DNA of 12,617 nt from a virus (lineage: Duplodnaviria; Heunggongvirae; Uroviricota; Caudoviricetes), in the IMG/VR virus record IMGVR_UViG_2778261256_000009; one strand, given 5' to 3'. Below the pieces are notes generated by a model. The model was not told the DNA's origin, ran no database searches, and saw nothing but the letters and a program-made list of their open reading frames with translations. The translations under genes and the position numbers were made by a program. Below, piece by piece: positions 2,591 to 10,778 of the stretch. The first letter of the stretch is position 1; every line of letters begins with the position of its first letter.

Positions 2591-2675
2591 AGTCAGAGAT
2601 AACAATCAACTAATACTGTTTTGTTGATTTTTGCTTGTAATTGGCGTTCTGGTCTGAGTTTTGTGGAGTAAGTTG

Positions 2676-3053
2676 ATGCGTGATATTCAGATGGTTCTTG
2701 AGCGTTGGGGAGCGTGGGCGGCTAATAATCATGAAGATGTGACCTGGTCGTCCATTGCCGCCGGTTTTAAGGGATTAATTCCTTCAAAAGTAAAATCTCG
2801 CCCACAATGTTGTGACGATGACGCGATGATCATTTGCGGGTGCATGGCCCGTCTGAAAAAGAACAACAGCGATTTGCATGATTTATTGGTGGACTATTAT
2901 GTCGGCGGCATGACTTTTATGGCGCTTGCACGTAAGCATGGGCGATCTGATTGTTGGGTTGGCAGGATGCTTCAGAAAGCTGAGGGCGTAGTGGAGGGTA
3001 TGCTGATGGTGTTGGATCTCCGATTGGAGATGGATGCTGATTGTTCGAAATAA
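2676..3053 (+). CDS. Q: Late-gene antiterminator Q (QuuD/phage-82-type)
   Basis: [33 protein letters not shown]...[31 protein letters not shown] resembles E. coli prophage QuuD-type Q (recalled). ATG at 2676 follows GGAG; the track ORF starts at an upstream TTG (2661). Confidence 0.85.
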
Positions 3054-3065
3054 TTAAAGGAAAAG

Positions 3066-3094
3066 TTGCTGTCTGATTGTCATTAGTCTAACAT
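3066..3094 (+). promoter_or_regulatory. Candidate late promoter (PR'-like), which would also carry the qut site
   Basis: TTGCTG (3066-3071), a 17-nt spacer, then TAACAT (3089-3094), located just downstream of Q and about 60 nt upstream of a terminator. This is the lambdoid PR'-qut-tR' layout. Hexamers are weak matches to consensus; position-based inference. Confidence 0.25.
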
Positions 3095-3153
3095 TTTAAA
3101 TGTTGGAATCGCAACGTAGTTATTATCATATAACAGCTTGTTTCCTGATTTAG

Positions 3154-3180
3154 CCAGCCTCCCCAAAGGCTGGTCTTTTT
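3154..3180 (+). terminator. Rho-independent terminator (tR'-like, end of the short late leader transcript)
   Basis: Stem CCAGCC (3154-3159) / GGCTGG (3168-3173), loop TCCCCAAA, then TCTTTTT. It also lies 3' of the convergent blc-like gene, so it may work in both directions, weakly on the minus strand. Confidence 0.6.
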
Positions 3181-3208
3181 CTAATAAGTATTATTTCGGG
3201 TAGGGATT

Positions 3209-3733
3209 TTATTGTTTAACCCATAATAATTCATTGACATTGAATCCCAACTTTTGAGCGGTTCGCACATAGTCTGCTTTTACTTTATCTGGAATAGTTG
3301 GGGTCCTTGCCAGAATCCATAGGTATTCTCTGTTCGGACCACTGACAAGAGCATACTTATACTCATCATCCAGTTTGATTACATTATAGCCACCATAGAA
3401 GGGGCCAAAAAACGAAACCTTCAATGCTGCAGTTTTAGTATCTCCAGTAAAGTATGCTTTACCTTCGCTCTCGCTCCATTTATTTTTCGTTGGATCGTAT
3501 CCACGGTTAAGTACACGAATCCCTCCGTCGTTCCGTTTTCCATAAGTAGCGCTGACCTGTTCCAGACCACGTTCGAACCGGTTCTCGAGGCGAGCTATTT
3601 CATACCATTTTCCGAGGTAGCGGTTGGCGTCAAAATTTGTAATCGGCTGCACACCTTTAGGTGGTGTCGGGGCCTTACATGCTATAAGAGTGAAAGAGAG
3701 TGCAATGCCAGTCAACACAGGCCATAACTTCAT
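3209..3733 (-). CDS. blc: Outer-membrane lipocalin lipoprotein, Blc family
   Basis: MKLWPVLTGIALSFTLIAC has a signal peptide and LIAC lipobox. ...NFDANRYLGKWYEIARLENRFERGLE...KVSFFGPFYGGYNVI...YLWILARTP strongly resembles E. coli Blc (recalled). Confidence 0.9.
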   Translation of the reverse strand: MKLWPVLTGIALSFTLIACKAPTPPKGVQPITNFDANRYLGKWYEIARLENRFERGLEQVSATYGKRNDGGIRVLNRGYDPTKNKWSESEGKAYFTGDTKTAALKVSFFGPFYGGYNVIKLDDEYKYALVSGPNREYLWILARTPTIPDKVKADYVRTAQKLGFNVNELLWVKQ

Positions 3734-3925
3734 AATAAATCCTGTACTTTTGATAGTTGAGAGTAAGTATGAAAGATAGATGATTACGACCGATCACTTA
3801 AAGAACTTTCATACTATATTAGGAATAGTCCATAACAGAAAAATTGTCAGTGATGACGCCAGAAAGGCAATTTATTCCGTGCACTACACAGTTTATGTGT
3901 TAATGAATTAGTCAAGGGGGAGAAT

Positions 3926-4885
3926 ATGATAAAAAAACCTGTGATTGGAATCAGCGGTTGTTTGGCCGGTTCTGCTGTTCGTTTTGATGGTGGTCACAAA
4001 AGAGCTGACTTTTTAATGGACAAATTAGTGGAATGGGTAACATTCAGACCAGTATGTCCGGAAATGGCTATAGGGCTGCCAGTTCCGCGTCCTGCTCTAC
4101 GTCTTGTGCGCTCGATGCAAGGAAATATACGGATGTGTTTCAGCCACGACCAGAATGAGGATGTGACAGAGAGAATGACAGAGTTTAGTCGTTCTTATAT
4201 GGACAAATTAAAGGATGTATCGGGGTTTGTGGTTTGTGCTAAATCTCCCAGCTGTGGCATGGAGCGCGTGCGTGTCTATGATGAAAATGGTAATCGAGGT
4301 CGTAAAGATGGAGTGGGACTATTTACGAGCACTTTGATGGAAAAGTTTTCCTGGCTACCGGTTGAAGAGGATGGGCGATTACATGATCCAGTGCTTCGTG
4401 AGAATTTTGTTGAAAGAGTTTTTGCTTTGCATGAGCTCAATCACCTTTACAAGGAGAAATTATCAAGAAGAGAGTTATTAGCTTTTCATAGTCGTTATAA
4501 GCTTCAGTTGTTGGCGCATAGTCAGGCAGGCTATAAAGATATGGGACCATTTGTGGCTGCAATACACGAGTGGGCGGACCTTGAATCATACTTTGAGGTG
4601 TATCGTGATAAGCTGATGGCGATTCTCAGAAAACCTGCATCACGTAAAAATCACACGAATGTGTTGATGCATATACAGGGGTATTTTAGTAACTACTTAA
4701 GTACACGCCAGCGTAAAGAGTTGAGCGAGGTTATACTTAACTATCGTTCTGGCACATTACCTCTTCTTGCGCCGTTGACTCTGCTGAAGCATTATCTGGG
4801 TGAGTATCCTAATGATTACTTGCTTACACAGAATTACTTCGATCCCTATCCGGACGAACTGGCTCTAAGACTGACGGTAAATTAA
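3926..4885 (+). CDS. DUF523 (TudS-like) + DUF1722 fusion protein, YbgA/RudS-like putative [4Fe-4S] thiouracil/4-thiouridine desulfidase
   Basis: N-terminal MIKKPVIGISGCLAGSAVRFDGGHK..RPVCPEM..VVCAKSPSCGME has Cys at approximately residues 12, 44, 104 and 110, consistent with the Cys ligands of TudS-family desulfidases. The C-terminal half resembles DUF1722 (YbgA-like). RBS AAGGGGGAG precedes the ATG. Family assignment is from memory. Confidence 0.7.
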   Translation: MIKKPVIGISGCLAGSAVRFDGGHKRADFLMDKLVEWVTFRPVCPEMAIGLPVPRPALRLVRSMQGNIRMCFSHDQNEDVTERMTEFSRSYMDKLKDVSGFVVCAKSPSCGMERVRVYDENGNRGRKDGVGLFTSTLMEKFSWLPVEEDGRLHDPVLRENFVERVFALHELNHLYKEKLSRRELLAFHSRYKLQLLAHSQAGYKDMGPFVAAIHEWADLESYFEVYRDKLMAILRKPASRKNHTNVLMHIQGYFSNYLSTRQRKELSEVILNYRSGTLPLLAPLTLLKHYLGEYPNDYLLTQNYFDPYPDELALRLTVN

Positions 4886-5227
4886 TTGTATGCGATATCA
4901 TCCAAAAGGATGAGTTCCTGCATGCAGGATATTTACAATCGTAAAAACTACACTATGATACCCAGAGTGTCAGTTTGTATAAAAACTCTGTTTACGCTGA
5001 AGAAACAATTGAGATGCAACTTAAAGTTGGTAAACATGCCAGTCAAAATATATAATATTATGATTCCACGCAGCTATATATAATATAACAGATTGGTTTA
5101 ATAATTTGTCTTTGTGAGTTAAATACATAATTTTATACTTGTGATGCAATGAAATTTTCCTTATTGTTGAACTGGCGAATATTGATTTTCCACCTATACT
5201 TACCTGGTGTAACCCCAATGATATCAG

Positions 5228-5968
5228 GTGGATAATATGCCATACATATGTTCTATCATTTTGGTGTTGAACTCGTTTGATGTCCGAATTGGTAAAGAAG
5301 ATATTTTGTTTAAAAAAGGAAGTGCTGTTCTCATTGATTACAATTTAAAAGATTTTTTTTCATCAAATATAGATCATGTAATGATCGTAGATGTTGAAGA
5401 GAAAACAGTTAATGATTTCTTTAAAAGCAACACACTCTCACCTTTTTCTGTAAGAAGGTTTTATCCGGCATACTTGATGGTGGAATGTGAAGATTTTTCA
5501 TTGTTAAAGAACTTGATTGCATGCTTGAATTGTGATGGCAGAACTGTGGATTTTGTTAGAAATCAAATATCACTTGCATGTCTTGCTATCTTATCTTCAG
5601 AGAAAATAGTGCAAAGTTTTTTATTTGGATGTCTTAATAGTTTAGGAAGTAAAGTTAAGGCTATTATTCACACGGATATATCTGCAGCATGGAGACTTTG
5701 TGATATATCTTCAAGACTGTATCTGAGTGAAAGTCTGTTAAAAAGAAAATTAAAGCACGAAGGCTTATCATTTAGTAAGTTAATTCTTGAAGAGCGAATG
5801 GTGATGGCGGAAAGGTTATTAAGCTACAATTTATATTCTGTTGGAAAAGTTGCTGAGATATGCGGTTATGAAAACACGTCATATTTTGTAAGTGTTTTCA
5901 GAAGGTATTTTGGTGTTCCTCCCCATCAATATTCATCAAGATTTTTTTTAGAAAAAGACATGATGTAA
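5228..5968 (+). CDS. AraC/XylS-family transcriptional regulator (C-terminal HTH), AT-rich
   Basis: The C-terminal region ...LYLSESLLKRKLKHEGLSFSKLILEERMVMAERLLSYNLYSVGKVAEICGYENTSYFVSVFRRYFGVPPHQY is a typical AraC-type double HTH. The gene and its 340-bp upstream region are markedly AT-rich. Start may be ATG 5228 or ATG 5237, which follows AGGTGG. Confidence 0.8.
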   Translation: MDNMPYICSIILVLNSFDVRIGKEDILFKKGSAVLIDYNLKDFFSSNIDHVMIVDVEEKTVNDFFKSNTLSPFSVRRFYPAYLMVECEDFSLLKNLIACLNCDGRTVDFVRNQISLACLAILSSEKIVQSFLFGCLNSLGSKVKAIIHTDISAAWRLCDISSRLYLSESLLKRKLKHEGLSFSKLILEERMVMAERLLSYNLYSVGKVAEICGYENTSYFVSVFRRYFGVPPHQYSSRFFLEKDMM

Positions 5969-6029
5969 CGTGATGCGTTTTAATGATTTTGTAATTTTCG
6001 TATTTGATAATTGTATGATGCTTTCAGCT

Positions 6030-6060
6030 ACGCCAGAATAATCGCGGCGTTTTTCTTTTT
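6030..6060 (+). terminator. Candidate intrinsic terminator downstream of the AraC-family gene
   Basis: Short stem ACGCC (6030-6034) / GGCGT (6046-6050) followed by TTTTTCTTTTT (6051-6060). The stem is weak, so confidence is modest. Confidence 0.35.
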
Positions 6061-6155
6061 GAATAGATGTTCAAGCCTTACGCTAATGTAACTTCTATAC
6101 CTTTCCTCTTCGTTCCGAACCGTGTACACCATCCGTTATTTGCGGAGGTGAGGCT

Positions 6156-6371
6156 ATGAAATCCATGGATAAGTTAACAACGGGTGTCGCCTATGGCACC
6201 TCAGCAGGTAGTGCCGGTTACTGGTTTTTACAGCTGCTCGATAAAGTCACGCCCTCACAGTGGGCAGCAATAGGTGTGCTGGGTAGCCTGGTATTTGGCC
6301 TGCTGACGTACCTGACAAACCTTTATTTCAAGATTAAAGAAGATAAGCGCAAGGCTGCGAGAGGTGAATAA
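6156..6371 (+). CDS. S: Class II holin / pinholin (phage 21 S-like), with dual-start motif
   Basis: 71 aa, [71 protein letters not shown]. Two Met codons (M1 and M4) fit the antiholin/holin dual start. Two hydrophobic segments; resembles S21/EssD (recalled). RBS GGAGGTGAGG. Confidence 0.9.
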
Positions 6372-6868
6372 TGCCTCCATCATTACGAAAAGCCGTTGCT
6401 GCTGCTATTGGTGGCGGAGCAATTGCTATAGCATCAGTGTTAATCACTGGCCCAAGTGGTAACGATGGTCTGGAAGGTGTCAGCTACATACCATACAAAG
6501 ATATCGTTGGCGTATGGACTGTATGTCACGGGCATACAGGAAAAGACATCATTCCCGGTAAAACGTATACCGAAGCAGAATGCAAAGCCCTCCTGAATAA
6601 AGACCTTGCCACGGTAGCCAGACAAATTAACCCGTACATCAAAGTCGATATACCGGAAACAACGCGCGGCGCTCTTTACTCGTTCGTCTATAACGTGGGC
6701 GCAGGCAATTTCAGAACATCTACTCTTCTTCGCAAAATAAACCAGGGCGATATCAAGGGCGCATGTGACCAGCTACGTCGCTGGGCATACGCTGGCGGTA
6801 AGCAATGGAAAGGCCTGATGACTCGTCGTGAGATTGAGCGTGAGGTCTGTTTGTGGGGGCAACAATGA
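6371..6868 (+). CDS. R: SAR endolysin (T4-lysozyme-like muramidase, R21-type)
   Basis: N-terminal Gly/Ala-rich weakly hydrophobic segment [20 protein letters not shown] (signal-anchor-release domain), then [25 protein letters not shown] carrying the E-x8-D-x5-T catalytic triad. Start overlaps the holin stop. Confidence 0.9.
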
Positions 6869-7329
6869 GCAGGGTAACCGCGATTATCTCCGCTCTGGTT
6901 ATCTGCATCGTCGTCTGCCTGTCATGGGGTGTTAATCATTACCGTGATAACGCCATCGCCTACAAAGAACAGCGCGACAAAAATGCCAGAGAACTGAAGC
7001 TGGCGAACGCGGCAATTACTGACATGCAGATGCGTCAGCGTGATGTTGCTGCGCTCGATGCAAAATACACGAAGGAGTTAGCTGATGCGAAAGCTGAAAA
7101 TGATGTTCTGCGTGATGATGTTGCCGCTGGTCGTCGTCGGTTGCACATCAAAGCAGTCTGTCAGTCAGTGCGTGAAGCCACCACCGCCTCCGGCGTGGAT
7201 AATGCAGCCTCCCCCCGACTGGCAGACACCGCTGAACGGGATTATTTCACCCTCCGGGAACGACTGGTAATGATGCAGGCCCAACTTGAAGGTGCTCAGC
7301 AATACATAACCGAGCAGTGTTTAAAGTAA
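6865..7329 (+). CDS. Rz: Rz i-spanin
   Basis: ATG at 6865 overlaps the endolysin stop (ATGA). N-terminal TM segment [21 protein letters not shown] followed by a charged, coiled-coil-like periplasmic domain. Resembles lambda Rz. Confidence 0.85.
7085..7270 (+). CDS. Rz1: Rz1 o-spanin lipoprotein, embedded in the +1 frame of Rz
   Basis: [53 protein letters not shown] has a lipobox (VVGC) and a proline-rich mature region. Lies wholly inside Rz in another frame, the classic spanin arrangement. Confidence 0.8.
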
Positions 7330-7466
7330 AATCTTAACTACAATATGATTCATTTTGATGATTGTTTCATAAGGAACAGTGAAGTAAGATCTAAGAGGAG
7401 TTAAATTTTATACAGTATAATCATAATATTGCAGCAAGGTGGTTATAATTGAAAGAATATTTAGAT

Positions 7467-8924
7467 ATGAATACATCTCATGTAAGAGTTGTTACTCATA
7501 TGTGTGGGTTCCTGGTTTGGCTCTATAGTCTTTCAATGTTGCCACCAATGGTTGTAGCATTGTTTTATAAAGAAAAAAGCCTGTTCGTTTTCTTTATAAC
7601 TTTCGTTATATTTTTTTGCATTGGTGGCGGAGCGTGGTATACAACTAAGAAATCTGGCATTCAATTACGTACCCGTGATGGGTTTATTATAATTGTAATG
7701 TTTTGGATTTTGTTTTCTGTTATTAGTGCATTCCCTTTATGGATTGACTCAGAACTTAATTTAACGTTCATTGATGCTCTGTTTGAAGGGGTTTCTGGAA
7801 TAACAACAACAGGAGCAACTGTAATTGATGATGTTAGTTCATTACCTCGGGCATATTTGTACTATCGGTCACAGTTAAATTTTATAGGTGGTTTAGGAGT
7901 TATTGTTCTGGCGGTTGCTGTATTGCCATTATTGGGTATTGGTGGTGCAAAGCTTTATCAGTCAGAAATGCCGGGGCCATTTAAGGATGACAAACTCACT
8001 CCCCGCCTGGCCGATACGTCACGGACACTGTGGATAACTTATTCTTTATTAGGTATTGCTTGTATTGTCTGTTATAGACTTGCAGGAATGCCTTTGTTTG
8101 ATGCTATTTGTCACGGGATTTCCACAGTTTCGCTTGGTGGTTTCTCAACTCATAGCGAGAGTATCGGATATTTTAATAACTATTTGGTTGAGCTGGTGGC
8201 TGGTTCTTTTTCCCTGCTATCGGCTTTCAACTTCACTCTTTGGTATATTGTTATTAGCAGGAAAACGATAAAACCTTTAATCAGAGATATTGAACTTCGT
8301 TTCTTTCTGTTAATAGCCTTAGGGGTGATCATTGTTACCTCTTTCCAGGTCTGGCATATAGGTATGTATGACTTGCATGGAAGTTTTATTCATTCGTTTT
8401 TTCTTGCCAGCTCCATGCTCACTGATAATGGTTTAGCTACGCAGGATTATGCAAGTTGGCCCACGCACACGATAGTGTTTTTGCTGTTGTCAAGTTTCTT
8501 TGGGGGATGTATAGGTTCAACTTGTGGTGGAATTAAGTCACTTCGATTTCTTATACTTTTCAAACAAAGCAAACACGAGATAAATCAGCTTTCTCATCCC
8601 AGAGCGTTGTTGAGTGTAAATGTAGGAGGGAAGATAGTTACAGATCGTGTAATGAGGTCTGTATGGAGTTTCTTTTTTCTTTATACTCTCTTCACGGTGT
8701 TTTTTATACTGGTGTTAAATGGTATGGGATATGATTTTCTTACATCATTTGCAACAGTGGCTGCATGTATTAATAATATGGGATTAGGTTTTGGGGCTAC
8801 TGCATCGTCATTCGGAGTGCTTAATGACATTGCAAAATGTTTAATGTGCATAGCTATGATTCTTGGTCGCCTTGAAATTTATCCTGTTATTATATTGTTT
8901 TCAGGTTTTTTTTGGCGCTCCTAA
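7467..8924 (+). CDS. trkG: TrkH/TrkG-family potassium uptake transporter (Rac-prophage TrkG-like)
   Basis: 485-aa polytopic membrane protein from ATG 7467, MNTSHVRVVTHMCGFLVWLYSL..., with several glycine-containing selectivity-filter-like P-loops (e.g. GVSGITTTGATV, GISTVSLGGFS, ACINNMGLGFG). AT-rich. Matches E. coli K-12 TrkG as recalled. The track ORF starts at an upstream TTG (7449). Confidence 0.9.
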   Translation: MNTSHVRVVTHMCGFLVWLYSLSMLPPMVVALFYKEKSLFVFFITFVIFFCIGGGAWYTTKKSGIQLRTRDGFIIIVMFWILFSVISAFPLWIDSELNLTFIDALFEGVSGITTTGATVIDDVSSLPRAYLYYRSQLNFIGGLGVIVLAVAVLPLLGIGGAKLYQSEMPGPFKDDKLTPRLADTSRTLWITYSLLGIACIVCYRLAGMPLFDAICHGISTVSLGGFSTHSESIGYFNNYLVELVAGSFSLLSAFNFTLWYIVISRKTIKPLIRDIELRFFLLIALGVIIVTSFQVWHIGMYDLHGSFIHSFFLASSMLTDNGLATQDYASWPTHTIVFLLLSSFFGGCIGSTCGGIKSLRFLILFKQSKHEINQLSHPRALLSVNVGGKIVTDRVMRSVWSFFFLYTLFTVFFILVLNGMGYDFLTSFATVAACINNMGLGFGATASSFGVLNDIAKCLMCIAMILGRLEIYPVIILFSGFFWRS

Positions 8925-9061: not shown

Positions 9062-9853
9062 ATGAGCGAGAAATTAAAGATAGTCTATCGCCCATTACAA
9101 GAATTGTCACCGTATGCGCACAACGCCAGGACGCACAGCCCTGAGCAGGTGGCACAACTGGTAGAAAGTATTAAGCAATTCGGCTGGACTAATCCGGTGC
9201 TGATTGACGAAAAGGGCGAAATTATTGCGGGTCACGGTCGTGTTATGGCGGCTGAAATGCTCAAAATGGATTCTGTTCCGGTCATTGTTCTGTCTGGCCT
9301 GACGGATGAGCAGAAAAAGGCGTACCGCCTGGCAGATAATCGCCTGCCGATGAATGCTGGCTGGGATGAAGATCTGTTGCGGATGGAGCTGTCGGACCTA
9401 ATCAATGCTGATTTTGATGTCTCCCTGACAGGCTTCATCCCGACAGAAATTGATGAACTGTTGACGGATGTTTTGCCCGGTACAGGAAATGAGGAGGAGC
9501 CGTATACGACGAAAATTGATACGCCTGTTTATGAGCCGTCGGGCGGTAAACCGGATATCAGTGAACTGTACGACGATACGAAAACTCAGGAGCTGATCAG
9601 CCGGATACGTTCGGCGTCCCTTGAGCCTGATATTGAGAAATTCCTCCTGTGTGCGGCAGAACGTCACACGGTGTTTAATTTCAGCAGAATTGCGGACTAT
9701 TACGCTCACGCCCCCTCTGAAATTCAGTGTTTTTTCGAGGAGTCGGCGCTGGTGATCATTGATTATCAGCAGGCTATTGAAAATGGATTTGTCCGGATGA
9801 CGCAGCGCATGGTGGAGATCATGCATGGTGGTGAGGAGGAGGAATATGCGTGA
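9062..9853 (+). CDS. ParB N-terminal-domain (ParB/Srx-like nuclease domain) protein, YnaK-like
   Basis: The N-terminus LKIVYRPLQELSPYAHNARTHSPEQVAQLVESIKQFGWTNPVLIDEKGEIIAGHGRVMAAEML shows the ParB-N fold signature, including a GxxR box. C-terminus is acidic. Occupies the position after trkG that ynaK holds in Rac (recalled). Confidence 0.75.
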   Translation: MSEKLKIVYRPLQELSPYAHNARTHSPEQVAQLVESIKQFGWTNPVLIDEKGEIIAGHGRVMAAEMLKMDSVPVIVLSGLTDEQKKAYRLADNRLPMNAGWDEDLLRMELSDLINADFDVSLTGFIPTEIDELLTDVLPGTGNEEEPYTTKIDTPVYEPSGGKPDISELYDDTKTQELISRIRSASLEPDIEKFLLCAAERHTVFNFSRIADYYAHAPSEIQCFFEESALVIIDYQQAIENGFVRMTQRMVEIMHGGEEEEYA

Positions 9854-10778
9854 TGATTTTTGCGCCTTTATTCTGACTCACGGGCGACCGGACAAAGTTC
9901 TGACTTACCGGACGTTGCGTCGTGCTGGCTATACCGGGAAAATTTTTATCGTTGTTGATGATGAAGATAAGACACGGAATCAGTACATGGCTGAATTTGG
10001 TGAACAGGTGCTGGTGTTTTCCAAAGCCGATATCGCCAGTCGTTTTGACGAAGCCGATAATTTCTGTGACCGCCGCTCAATTTTTTACGCCCGTAATGCC
10101 TGTTTCGACCTGGCAAAACTGGTCGGGTGTAAATACTTCATTCAGCTCGATGATGATTATCACGAGTTCCAGTTTCGGGTGGATCGCAACTATGACCAGG
10201 CCTATTTTCCGATAAGGAAACTGGATGCGATCCTTTCTGAAATGCTGGCGTACTACGAATCAATACCTGCTCTTTCCATCGCTATGTCGCAGGGCGGGGA
10301 TTTTCTTGGTGACAATGGCGGCCATGCTTCGTGGGTGAAACGCAAGGCAATGAACAGCTTTATCTGTTCGGTTGATCGACCGTTCTCATTCATGGGGCGC
10401 ATTAACGAGGATGTGAATACGTACACGAATCTCGGTCGCTGTGGTGAATTGTTTATGACGATCGGTGCTGTCCAGTTAGGGCAGAAACAGACGCAGAAAA
10501 ACAGCGGCGGAATGACCGAGCTGTATCTGGATTCCGGAACCTACGTTAAAAGTTTTTACTCCGTCATGTATGCGCCGTCGTGCGTAAAAATCTCACTGAT
10601 GGGTGCCAGCCATAAACGCATTCACCATCAGGTCACCTGGAACAACGCTGCAGTAAAAATCCTTCACGAAAAATACAGGAAGAAGACACCCTGCATATCA
10701 ATGGGGGTGACAAATGATTCCGTATTCGAAAGTCGAGTCTCTGGCAGCGTGCCGGATGACTGCACAACAAATCGCTGA
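9846..10778 (+). CDS. Uncharacterised protein with a GT-A-fold-like motif pattern (possible nucleotide-sugar transferase); function unknown
   Basis: ATG at 9846 follows a strong GAGGAGGAGG RBS and overlaps the ParB-like stop by 8 nt. The pattern FILTHGRPDKV .. IFIVVDDEDK .. YFIQLDDDYH resembles the beta1 / DD / DxD layout of GT-A glycosyltransferases. This is a motif-level inference only. Confidence 0.55.
   Translation: MRDDFCAFILTHGRPDKVLTYRTLRRAGYTGKIFIVVDDEDKTRNQYMAEFGEQVLVFSKADIASRFDEADNFCDRRSIFYARNACFDLAKLVGCKYFIQLDDDYHEFQFRVDRNYDQAYFPIRKLDAILSEMLAYYESIPALSIAMSQGGDFLGDNGGHASWVKRKAMNSFICSVDRPFSFMGRINEDVNTYTNLGRCGELFMTIGAVQLGQKQTQKNSGGMTELYLDSGTYVKSFYSVMYAPSCVKISLMGASHKRIHHQVTWNNAAVKILHEKYRKKTPCISMGVTNDSVFESRVSGSVPDDCTTNR

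Follow-up and report, generated by a model that had tools for sequence, protein, structure and literature searches.

The chromosomal blc gene of E. coli adjoins ampC and is sigma-S dependent, and its product, the lipocalin Blc, binds lysophospholipid, fatty acid or heme. A plasmid-borne blc, located next to blaCMY-2, was mobilised from Citrobacter freundii. As for phages, one study counts blc among the morons, with more than 50% of 19 gut lambda phages carrying it, and notes a predominance of membrane proteins among lambda morons (Mathieu et al, 2020; PMC6969025). This was the only relevant report that we found in the literature on lipocalins as morons or in lambdoid phages. The prophage blc-like gene is already known: it is common, annotated in RefSeq and counted among lambda morons, and its occurrence as phage cargo is for these reasons an ordinary finding.

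Here, we describe the copy carried in a 12.6-kb window, by which we mean the whole stretch of DNA analyzed. We consider it probable that this gene is a functional moron of lambdoid coliphages, which encodes an outer membrane-anchored lipocalin of the Blc family, originates from a second Blc clade, was captured together with rudS, is expressed from its own promoter and is crossed by antisense read-through. In the following sections, we summarize its genomic context, sequence features and origin, and weigh the alternative explanations.

Prophage context and distribution

From base 76 on, the window is collinear with lambdoid prophages that lie between ybhC and ybhB/bioA in related genomes, and bases 1–75 are the end of an IS element. 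The same module is also seen in packaged phage genomes. Judged by this collinearity, the segment is a contiguous lambdoid E. coli prophage at attλ, distinct from the host blc locus. Its genes are arranged in the order Q (2676–3053, + strand), a hairpin, the blc-like gene (− strand), a gene with DUF523 and DUF1722 domains (3926–4885, + strand), an AraC-like gene (5237–5968, + strand), holin, lysozyme and Rz, and trkG and a ParB-like gene are found 3′ of Rz. Searches of the whole window with Rfam (at the gathering threshold) and ARAGORN gave no match.

The original prediction had described the lipocalin gene as an uncommon moron; a moron it probably is, but not an uncommon one. Related phages share the flanking genes and differ in whether the gene lies between them, and the GC profile sets the region from 3001 to 3800 (0.38–0.45) apart from the replication and lysis modules (0.47–0.53). 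Yet of 5426 complete E. coli genomes, 1135 (about one in five) carry it, with up to three copies per genome; it also occurs in 12 isolated coliphages, besides more than half of the gut lambda phages mentioned above. The whole Q-to-holin module is present in 979 of the 1135 carrier genomes. E. coli BL21 retains the blc-like gene intact in its decayed Qin remnant, in which IS3 interrupts rudS and the lysis genes have been lost.

Two further cargo genes accompany blc. The rudS-like gene (3926–4885, + strand; 319 aa) contains TudS/DUF523 and DUF1722 domains according to Pfam and is predicted by homology to encode a tRNA 4-thiouridine desulfidase; its ortholog in Escherichia phage 1H12, H3V29_gp66 or “RudS_vir”, has been assayed experimentally (PMC11417400). 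The third cargo gene of the Q–S slot (5237–5968, + strand) encodes an AraC/YdeO-like regulator (Pfam HTH_18/HTH_AraC), whose best NCBIfam match, YdeO, scores 127 bits and thus falls under its cut-off. It lies in a low-GC stretch (0.29–0.33) and has homologs in other coliphages. The cargo region ends with a second terminator (6030–6060, + strand), located by alignment about 95 nt 5′ of the holin gene, so that the region is bracketed by + strand terminators; this terminator is called in 1H12 (L005:4899–4920) but not in the window, where a 1-base stem deletion weakens it. The first late genes past the cargo form the lysis cassette (6156–7329, + strand), which comprises an S21-type holin, lysozyme and Rz/Rz1 (Pfam Phage_holin_2_1 and Phage_lysozyme; annotated in RefSeq as essD, rrrD and rzpD in relatives). 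Sister phages, with Q residues 1–76 identical and a near-identical holin, carry an antisense porin gene in place of blc. As separate observations, IS elements insert in the Q–S slot, which in one strain has also received an mcr-1 transposon, and the cargo seems to move as one block with the C-terminus of Q and the pR′ region.

The blc-like gene encodes a predicted outer membrane lipoprotein

The blc-like gene (3209–3733, − strand) is an open reading frame with an ATG start and a Shine–Dalgarno sequence, CAGGA, at 3744–3740 (− strand). It encodes a protein of 174 aa that is identical to RefSeq WP_000780581.1. The protein matches Pfam Lipocalin_2 (PF08212; E=7.2e-44; 149.7 bits vs a cut-off of 24) over residues 35–174 and the NCBIfam model “outer membrane lipoprotein Blc” (NF007786; 316.1 bits vs a cut-off of 267) over residues 1–174. 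Residues 16–174 align without gaps to the E. coli Blc structures 3MBT, 1QWD and 2ACO (E about 1e-68; 63% identity), and the lipocalin fold, an eight-stranded calyx with a C-terminal helix, is predicted to be present. The N-terminus (3677–3733, − strand) is a signal peptide with the lipobox LIAC at residues 16–19, found with the pattern [LVI][ASTVI][GAS]C, in which Cys19 would be lipidated and Lys20 occupies position +2. Lipoproteins with a residue other than Asp at +2 are sorted to the outer membrane by the Lol system; because its +2 residue is Lys, the window lipocalin would follow this route. Taken together, the gene is real and intact and is predicted to encode an outer membrane lipocalin lipoprotein of the Blc family. 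The family matches, the lipobox and the prophage collinearity agree with the original prediction of a prophage gene for a Blc-like lipocalin lipoprotein.

Alignment to chromosomal Blc, which had been suggested as a check on the ligand pocket, revealed strong conservation of this site. Among the 19 pocket residues, defined as those within 4 Å of the ligand in Blc (PMC8177097), 18 are identical to E. coli Blc and K77R is the sole change, compared with 80 identical residues of 136 in the mature protein outside the pocket (Fisher p=0.001). The window allele and that of phage 1H12 differ by 21 synonymous and 5 nonsynonymous substitutions (dN/dS 0.06, dS 0.20), a pattern of purifying selection.

The protein has also been detected. 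WP_000780581.1 was quantified in the proteome of E. coli CCUG 70745, where it rose 1.99-fold and 2.98-fold after meropenem (PMC13459554). That study names it simply “Blc”, and its tie to the window protein is the identical accession; the quantified peptides may be shared with chromosomal Blc, and the gene may lie outside a prophage in that strain. The original prediction would have been undermined by a gene that is not expressed; instead, an E. coli proteome contains the exact protein. Its increase upon meropenem may be due to gene dosage from prophage replication and not to regulation. More generally, the “Blc” of E. coli studies, such as this 2026 meropenem proteome, may be the product of the prophage paralog and not of the chromosomal gene. 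The two can be told apart by paralog-specific peptides, VSFFGPFYGGYNVIK for the prophage protein and VSFFGPFYGGYNVIALDR for chromosomal Blc.

Origin from a second Blc clade

In a neighbor-joining tree, the phage blc groups with paralogs from Enterobacter, Leclercia and Cedecea, apart from the clade formed by E. coli, Salmonella and Citrobacter Blc; Buttiauxella izardii has a member of both. Over its full length, the window protein is 59% identical to K-12 Blc, as opposed to 75–79% among canonical orthologs, and its mature part is 63% identical to E. coli Blc. By these comparisons, the phage blc-like gene is not an ortholog of the ampC-linked chromosomal blc. The original prediction had called it a second lipocalin copy; as a duplicate of host blc, it is contradicted by both the 63% identity and the different clade. 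The second Blc clade is missing from the E. coli chromosome proper. A word-11 blastn search against E. coli genomes did not reach chromosomal blc and returned only plasmid lipocalins (67% nucleotide identity).

The closest homologs of the window lipocalin (74–83% identity) come from other Enterobacterales, and a RudS (69–73% identical) is encoded in divergent orientation at all ten closest genome loci (L010–L019) and on a metagenome contig (L007). In the chromosomes of Enterobacter, Leclercia, Buttiauxella, Huaxiibacter and Raoultella, the blc paralog is divergent from a MerR/MlrA-like regulator (Pfam MlrA_helical/MlrA_C), sometimes a transthyretin-like gene, and rudS. The Cedecea homolog adjoins a MerR-like regulator and a cluster of SDR, amine-oxidase, DUF1365 and CFA-synthase genes, and in three more distant clade members (Kosakonia, Pantoea and Symbiopectobacterium) RudS is absent within 6 kb. 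Since the phage keeps the divergent blc/rudS pair minus the regulator, joint capture of both genes from a chromosome of this kind is the most likely origin. In a blastn comparison (word size 7) of the phage cassette with the chromosomal loci, only the coding sequence and about 10–20 nt align, with no traceable capture junction. Because DNA homology is confined in this way, the case for co-capture is built on the shared gene order and on the comparable divergence of the two proteins. Together with the experimentally characterized RudS_vir, the lipocalin would constitute a putative co-captured pair with a traceable chromosomal source, which gives rise to a concrete hypothesis of joint function.

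Control region and late transcription

The divergent control region between blc and rudS (3734–3925) spans 192 bp and contains a conserved 13-mer, a candidate −10 element and the Shine–Dalgarno sequence. The 13-mer AATATAGTATGAA (3808–3820, − strand) aligns with AATATACTACGAA of the chromosomal blc/merR intergenic regions and is the sole match in the window, with 0.31 expected over both strands. The candidate blc −10 element is CATACT (3771–3766, − strand), and the blc-proximal 130 bp of the region are 96% identical to 1H12. A consensus promoter scan of 2600–6400 called 13 sites, no more than in shuffled sequence (11.3 expected), and none on the − strand in 3734–3925, and so placed neither the blc promoter nor the late promoter. 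The 16-mer form of the upstream motif had no match at up to three mismatches, and the motif TGCACTACACTT had one match, at chance level and on the other strand.

On the other side of blc, the antiterminator Q (2676–3053, + strand; RefSeq start 2676) belongs to the Q21/933W family (PF06530; E=2.5e-51) and is a distant match to the Q21 structures 6P18 and 6JNX. It is followed by a hairpin, GCCAGCCT-N6-AGGCTGGT (3153–3174), and the tail CTTTTTCT, which together form a predicted intrinsic terminator (3153–3182, + strand) with an 8-bp stem and a 6-nt loop, located 100 nt past the stop codon of Q and 35 nt beyond the blc stop codon of the opposite strand. This is the sole terminator-like site in a scan of 2600–6400, and it is called on the + strand only. 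Folding energies are similar for both strands (−14.2 kcal/mol, z=−3.1 on the + strand; −14.4 kcal/mol, z=−1.1 on the − strand), but the T-run is restricted to the + strand and the − strand hairpin ends in CUAAAUCAGG, without a U-run. The stem is unchanged in the phages IdasGreatGrand and 1H12, in which the T-run is longer. The hairpin thus has the sequence of a canonical terminator on the + strand only, as expected of the late-operon terminator tR′. A bidirectional terminator was considered and ruled out by the missing U-tract on the − strand. Of the shared terminator for both units that had been suggested originally, only the part concerning the Q strand is retained.

The spacer between Q and the terminator (3054–3152, + strand) is the expected site of pR′, the Q-binding element and the sigma-dependent pause element. 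Candidate pR′ elements are either TTGCTG (3066–3071) and TAACAT (3089–3094) as −35 and −10 or TATCAT (3124–3129) as −10, all on the + strand; the consensus promoter scan made no call above threshold in 3054–3152, and direct repeats that might form a Q-binding element were sought in 3040–3215 without result. Only a 9-mer, ATATAACAG, is common to the spacer regions of this phage and the porin-type phage. The layout of a PF06530 Q, a promoter-proximal + strand terminator and + strand lysis genes matches that of Q21/933W-type late operons, and the lambdoid late-operon architecture described for the Q21 family served as our model for pR′, Q and terminator. In the gene order, blc on the − strand faces Q on the + strand, confirming the convergence noted from the outset. 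Since blc also sits between Q and the + strand lysis genes, we infer that Q-modified late transcription must cross it in antisense, as had likewise been anticipated.

Functional interpretation

We propose that the captured blc/rudS pair came to occupy the cargo slot that separates the Q unit (Q, pR′ and tR′) from the holin gene. In the lysogen, blc would be transcribed leftwards from its own promoter in the divergent region, which keeps a motif of the chromosomal loci. The Blc-like precursor would be lipidated at Cys19 and then sorted to the outer membrane by Lol, where the conserved calyx may bind a hydrophobic ligand as E. coli Blc does and contribute to envelope maintenance under stress. 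Upon induction, Q-modified RNA polymerase would start just 3′ of Q, read through the + strand terminator at 3153–3182 and cross blc in antisense; it would next read rudS and the AraC-like gene in sense and pass the terminator at 6030–6060 into the lysis genes.

A tentative extension, which we hold more probably wrong than right, concerns the pair as a unit: blc and rudS may be a stress divergon from an Enterobacter-like chromosome that lost its MerR/MlrA-like regulator, is co-expressed from a retained ancestral promoter core and answers envelope or oxidative stress. If true, about a fifth of E. coli strains would gain both tRNA 4-thiouridine erasure and a second lipocalin for damaged lipids, and the divergon would account for the 2–3-fold protein rise after meropenem that was ascribed to “Blc”.

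It is also conceivable, though doubtful, that the pair is specifically a captured module against near-UV or photo-oxidative stress, in which RudS erases photosensitive s4U from tRNA, the lipocalin handles oxidized or lyso-lipids, and loss of the regulator has left expression constitutive or host-controlled. The divergent blc/MerR–RudS layout in all ten closest genomes and the promoter-region motif kept in the phage are in line with this, as is the resemblance of the Cedecea cluster to the light-induced LitR/phrB/ufaM cluster of Pseudomonas (PMC9758184); moreover, RudS genes often lie in light-responsive operons, and RudS overexpression cuts the growth delay caused by UVA (PMC11417400). However, lipocalins go unmentioned in both the RudS (PMC11417400) and the LitR (PMC9758184) papers, and a search of the literature on LitR together with lipocalin found nothing relevant. 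In addition, blc and rudS are separable, since BL21 keeps the former and not the latter, and little light reaches gut E. coli.

A lipoprotein that serves the phage rather than host physiology, by superinfection exclusion, receptor masking or lysis modulation, is improbable. Phage outer membrane lipoproteins with such roles are exemplified by Llp of T5, Cor and Bor. In favor of such a role, the predicted outer membrane lipoprotein is encoded next to the lysis cassette, and a Blc-like gene (54% identity) is also found in an unrelated Morganella phage, where it separates the lysis genes from the terminase genes; the predominance of membrane proteins among lambda morons (PMC6969025) points the same way. 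Against this, the gene probably came from a chromosomal stress-type locus along with rudS, and the conservation of the ligand calyx at 18 of 19 positions suggests that the ancestral function of binding small molecules has been retained.

Somewhat less probable still is a neutral passenger, riding with the Q/pR′ specificity module and having no function of its own in lysogen or phage. A mosaic cargo region that is often hit by IS elements and has even received an mcr-1 transposon, and that seems to travel with the Q C-terminus and the pR′ region, would be compatible with such a passenger, but the low dN/dS of 0.06 at a dS of 0.20, the preferential conservation of pocket residues, the open reading frame kept intact amid decayed neighbors in the BL21 Qin remnant and the detection of the protein in a proteome all argue for function. 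Finally, the possibility raised in the original prediction, that the host chromosomal blc locus had been misread as contiguous prophage, can be dismissed: although both genes encode Blc-family lipoproteins of near-equal length that align without gaps, the prophage collinearity between ybhC and ybhB/bioA rules out a host locus or a misassembly, packaged phage genomes contain the module as well, mature identity is just 63%, word-11 blastn makes no link to chromosomal blc, and the neighbors are Q and rudS instead of ampC.

Comparison with known systems

As a probable functional moron for a Blc-family lipocalin, the locus has direct counterparts in Escherichia phage 1H12 (H3V29_gp65) and the Lambda_ev series, where the same gene has an identical position and orientation (Q, blc on the − strand, rudS-like, AraC-like, holin). 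The 1H12 gene is 97% identical at the protein and 95% at the DNA level, that is, it shows allelic differences only (5 amino acids). Unlike 1H12, the window prophage adds trkG and the ParB-like gene after Rz and has the IS end at bases 1–75.

With E. coli Blc (1QWD, 2ACO and 3MBT), the window protein shares family models, length, register, lipobox and Cys19, as well as the residues R52, A36 and V74. Residue 84, the site of a G/E polymorphism in E. coli Blc (PMC7026729), is Asn. The two genes differ in clade, neighbors and promoter. The Enterobacter-type chromosomal locus is closer (Blc 74–83% and RudS 69–73% identical), with the same divergent orientation and the 13-mer upstream of blc in common, whereas the phage has neither the MerR-like regulator nor the transthyretin-like gene, and its intergenic region measures 192 bp vs about 115 bp. 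Plasmid-borne blc (67% nucleotide identity) is likewise a mobilized member of the Blc family, through which E. coli acquires an additional lipocalin, but it belongs to the canonical ampC-linked clade, is a by-product of ampC mobilization and resides on a plasmid rather than a phage.

In terms of genomic position, a parallel is provided by DLP12-like phages, which hold an nmpC/OmpD-type porin gene in the Q–S slot; like blc, it is a non-essential outer membrane protein gene placed antisense in the late operon. In phage ev243, the porin gene (− strand) lies exactly between Q (residues 1–76 identical; 88% over 120 aligned residues) and the same holin, and both ev243 and 1H12 carry a bor-like lipoprotein gene (− strand) after Rz. 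Porin and lipocalin belong to unrelated protein families, and the two arrangements differ in their termination signals: in the porin-type phage, the − strand has a terminator of its own next to the stop codon of Q, while the blc-type phage has the + strand terminator only.

Identity of the lipocalin gene

The ORF at 3209-3733 (−) encodes 174 residues, and its product is identical to WP_000780581.1. This protein matches Pfam Lipocalin_2 (149.7 bits), exceeds the cut-off of NCBIfam "outer membrane lipoprotein Blc" (316 vs 267 bits), aligns gap-free with experimental structures of E. coli Blc (E about 1e-68), and carries a lipobox (LIAC, residues 16-19) followed by Lys. The original prediction of a Blc-like lipocalin lipoprotein gene is therefore correct. 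Its description as a second copy does not hold in the sense of a duplicate, since mature phage and E. coli proteins share only 98 of 155 residues (63%) and fall into separate clades. The nearest relatives are encoded on the chromosomes of Enterobacter spp., Leclercia, Huaxiibacter, Buttiauxella, Raoultella, Cedecea, and Kosakonia, and share 74-83% identity. In a neighbour-joining tree, this clade stands apart from the canonical E. coli/Salmonella/Citrobacter clade; Buttiauxella izardii is represented in both by a single gene. Judged by these comparisons, phage blc is a distinct paralog, not a duplicate of E. coli blc.

Prophage setting

The window is a segment of a lambdoid prophage. Its + strand reads ren, ninB, a DNA methyltransferase gene, ninE, rusA, and Q (2676-3053), followed by three cargo genes, holin, lysozyme, Rz/Rz1, trkG, a ParB-like gene, and terminase genes. 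From base 76, it is collinear with prophages at attλ (between ybhC and ybhB/bioA) in other E. coli genomes; in strain AR_0085, this site is occupied by a decayed copy of the prophage. This collinearity, together with the low identity to E. coli Blc, excludes a host blc locus misjudged as prophage. Bases 1-75 derive from one end of a multicopy IS element, with a terminal repeat that resembles IS10; the piece 1-93 occurs in 2741 genomes, many plasmids among them. Since all prophage relatives match from base 76 only, the source prophage is interrupted just upstream of ren. Two other genes look like further late-region cargo: trkG (7449-8924, +), a low-GC potassium transporter gene placed after Rz as in the Rac prophage, and a 317-aa ORF (9825-10778, +) whose RefSeq relatives are named "GREB1-related protein". 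JARKOR010000135.1, a contig of 2.1 kb assigned to "Candidatus Nanosynbacter sp.", contains Q, blc, and the start of rudS, with proteins 99-100% identical to those of the window's E. coli prophage segment, and is almost certainly misbinned.

Probable joint capture with rudS

The "YbgA family" neighbour at 3926-4885 (+) is a RudS-type tRNA 4-thiouridine desulfidase (TudS/DUF523 and DUF1722). Its ortholog in the related phage 1H12 (H3V29_gp66, "RudS_vir") proved active when expressed and assayed, at a lower level than other RudS enzymes (PMC11417400). Chromosomal RudS is absent from E. coli (PMC11417400), and RudS activity therefore reaches this species only via such prophages. In all ten of the closest genome loci, and in a metagenome contig, the blc paralog divergently adjoins an operon that comprises a MerR/MlrA-like regulator and/or transthyretin-like gene and, in addition, a DUF523+DUF1722 protein of 319 aa with 69-73% identity to the 3926-4885 product. 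The phage thus carries the divergent blc/rudS pair without the regulator. Nucleotide homology between phage and chromosomal loci is limited to coding regions with one exception, the 13-mer AATATAGTATGAA at 3808-3820 (−), which aligns with AATATACTACGAA, a sequence that does not vary among the intergenic regions of the chromosomal loci. It has a single match in the window (0.31 expected, both strands), and simple arithmetic gives an expectation of about 0.002 within the 192-bp divergent region (3734-3925) on the right strand. Most likely, blc and rudS were captured together from a locus of the Enterobacter type. A less likely alternative to the envelope role proposed below, suggested by synteny and by the association of RudS and LitR clusters with light responses, is that both genes may form a joint near-UV/oxidative-stress module.

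Probable late-operon terminator and predicted antisense transcription

Scanning 2600-6400 for terminators yielded a sole terminator-like site, GCCAGCCT-N6-AGGCTGGT at 3153-3174 followed by CTTTTTCT, which was called on the + strand. Folding of the + strand RNA gives −14.2 kcal/mol (z=−3.1). Read from the − strand, the stem reaches −14.4 kcal/mol (z=−1.1), no better than shuffles in context, and the sequence after it, CUAAAUCAGG, lacks a U-run. The proposal that this hairpin terminates both converging units is thus not supported on the − strand. The relatives IdasGreatGrand and 1H12 preserve the stem unchanged and have a longer + strand T-run than the window. The hairpin lies 100 nt past the stop codon of Q, which belongs to the Q21/933W family (PF06530), and in cassettes of this family the Q gene is followed by pR', a sigma-dependent pause element, a terminator, and then the late genes (bioRxiv 10.1101/651190). 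For these reasons, the most fitting interpretation of the hairpin is tR', the terminator of the late operon, rather than a dedicated or shared blc terminator.

There are two candidate −10 elements of pR'. One is TAACAT at 3089-3094 (+), preceded by TTGCTG at a distance of 17 bp; the other is TATCAT at 3124-3129 (+). The interval from the Q stop codon to the terminator also contains a 10+10 palindrome that is nearly perfect, TCTAACATTT-T-AAATGTTGGA at 3087-3107 (+). It overlaps one of these candidates, and 1H12 keeps it less well. Direct repeats, sought in 3040-3215 as a possible Q-binding element, were not found. A second terminator at 6030-6060 (+) marks the end of the cargo region, between the AraC-like and holin genes. 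It is called in 1H12 and receives no call in the window, where the 3' arm of the stem has a 1-base deletion (CGC-GGCG vs CGCTGGCG in IdasGreatGrand/1H12). In the window's prophage, this weakened terminator could permit read-through from cargo promoters into the lysis genes. From the layout of genes and terminators, we infer that Q-modified polymerase crosses blc antisense.

Selection, expression, and proposed role

Alignment to chromosomal Blc shows a conserved ligand pocket. Of 19 positions that lie no more than 4 Å from the ligand in Blc (PMC8177097), 18 are identical, the one change being K77R, compared with 80 of 136 in the remaining mature protein (Fisher p=0.001). Purifying selection acts on the gene: its alleles in the window and 1H12 differ by 21 synonymous and 5 nonsynonymous changes, with a dN/dS of 0.06, against higher values of 0.11 for rudS and 0.26 for the AraC-like gene. 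In BL21, the Qin remnant has lost the lysis genes and its rudS is truncated by IS3, but Q and an adjoining intact blc-like gene are kept (NZ_CP010816.1 1557693-1558217; WP_000780584.1; 97.9% nucleotide identity). Both the low dN/dS and this retention argue against blc being a neutral passenger, and a function that benefits the phage, for instance in superinfection exclusion, is unlikely.

A TMT proteomics study published in 2026 found WP_000780581.1 raised 1.99-fold and 2.98-fold in E. coli CCUG 70745 after 128 and 192 µg/mL meropenem, respectively, under the plain label "Blc" and without separating the prophage paralog from chromosomal Blc (PMC13459554). Going by accession, the meropenem-raised protein is the prophage paralog rather than chromosomal Blc, and its quantification constitutes protein-level evidence of expression. 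Some of the quantified peptides may be shared with chromosomal Blc, the gene may have a different context in that strain, and the rise may stem from gene dosage after prophage induction.

We favour a role for the lipocalin in the envelope of the lysogen. There, blc would be transcribed leftward from the divergent region, and its product would be lipidated and then Lol-sorted to the outer membrane. Its calyx may bind a hydrophobic ligand in the manner of Blc, and the lipocalin could contribute to envelope maintenance during stress. After induction, antisense read-through over blc would probably cause transcriptional interference.

Distribution and comparison with known cargo

The gene had been considered an uncommon moron, which the following counts refute. 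The blc-like ORF is matched in 1135 of 5426 complete E. coli genomes, with at least 95% identity in all but one; 1042 of the 1135 hold at least 80% of it, at up to three places per genome, and the entire Q-to-holin module is present in 979 genomes. Twelve isolated temperate coliphages carry the gene in like order and orientation, and Mathieu et al. (2020) list "blc, a bacterial lipocalin" as a moron in >50% of 19 gut lambda phages (PMC6969025). The blc-like gene is thus real and ordinary: it has an annotation, occurs widely, and has been described before among lambda morons. The refinements made here (paralog clade, rudS co-capture, tR' assignment, pocket conservation, and proteomic detection) are modest.

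The Q-to-holin slot acts as a typical site for cargo. In porin-type phages, the holin is nearly the same and the slot holds a porin gene, also on the − strand. Q residues 1-76 are identical between the window and the porin-type locus (L004:1577-1960), and the C-terminal part and downstream sequence diverge, which places a mosaic joint inside Q; the Q C-terminus, pR' region, and cargo appear to be swapped as a single block. The third cargo gene (5237-5968, +) encodes a YdeO/GadX-like AraC-family regulator in a low-GC stretch (window GC 0.29-0.33), and 52% identical homologs occur at different positions in other coliphages. It is split by ISApl1-mcr-1-pap2-ISApl1 in a 100% identical relative (NZ_AP023286.1; L090:5662-11143), and other relatives have IS1, IS2, IS3, or IS5 inside the same cargo region. 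A Morganella phage has independently acquired a place for a Blc-like gene (54% identical) between its lysis and terminase genes. At residue 84, where chromosomal Blc has a G/E polymorphism that changes lysophospholipid binding (PMC7026729), the phage protein differs in having Asn. Finally, blc-type and porin-type phages are alike in carrying a bor-like lipoprotein gene antisense after Rz.
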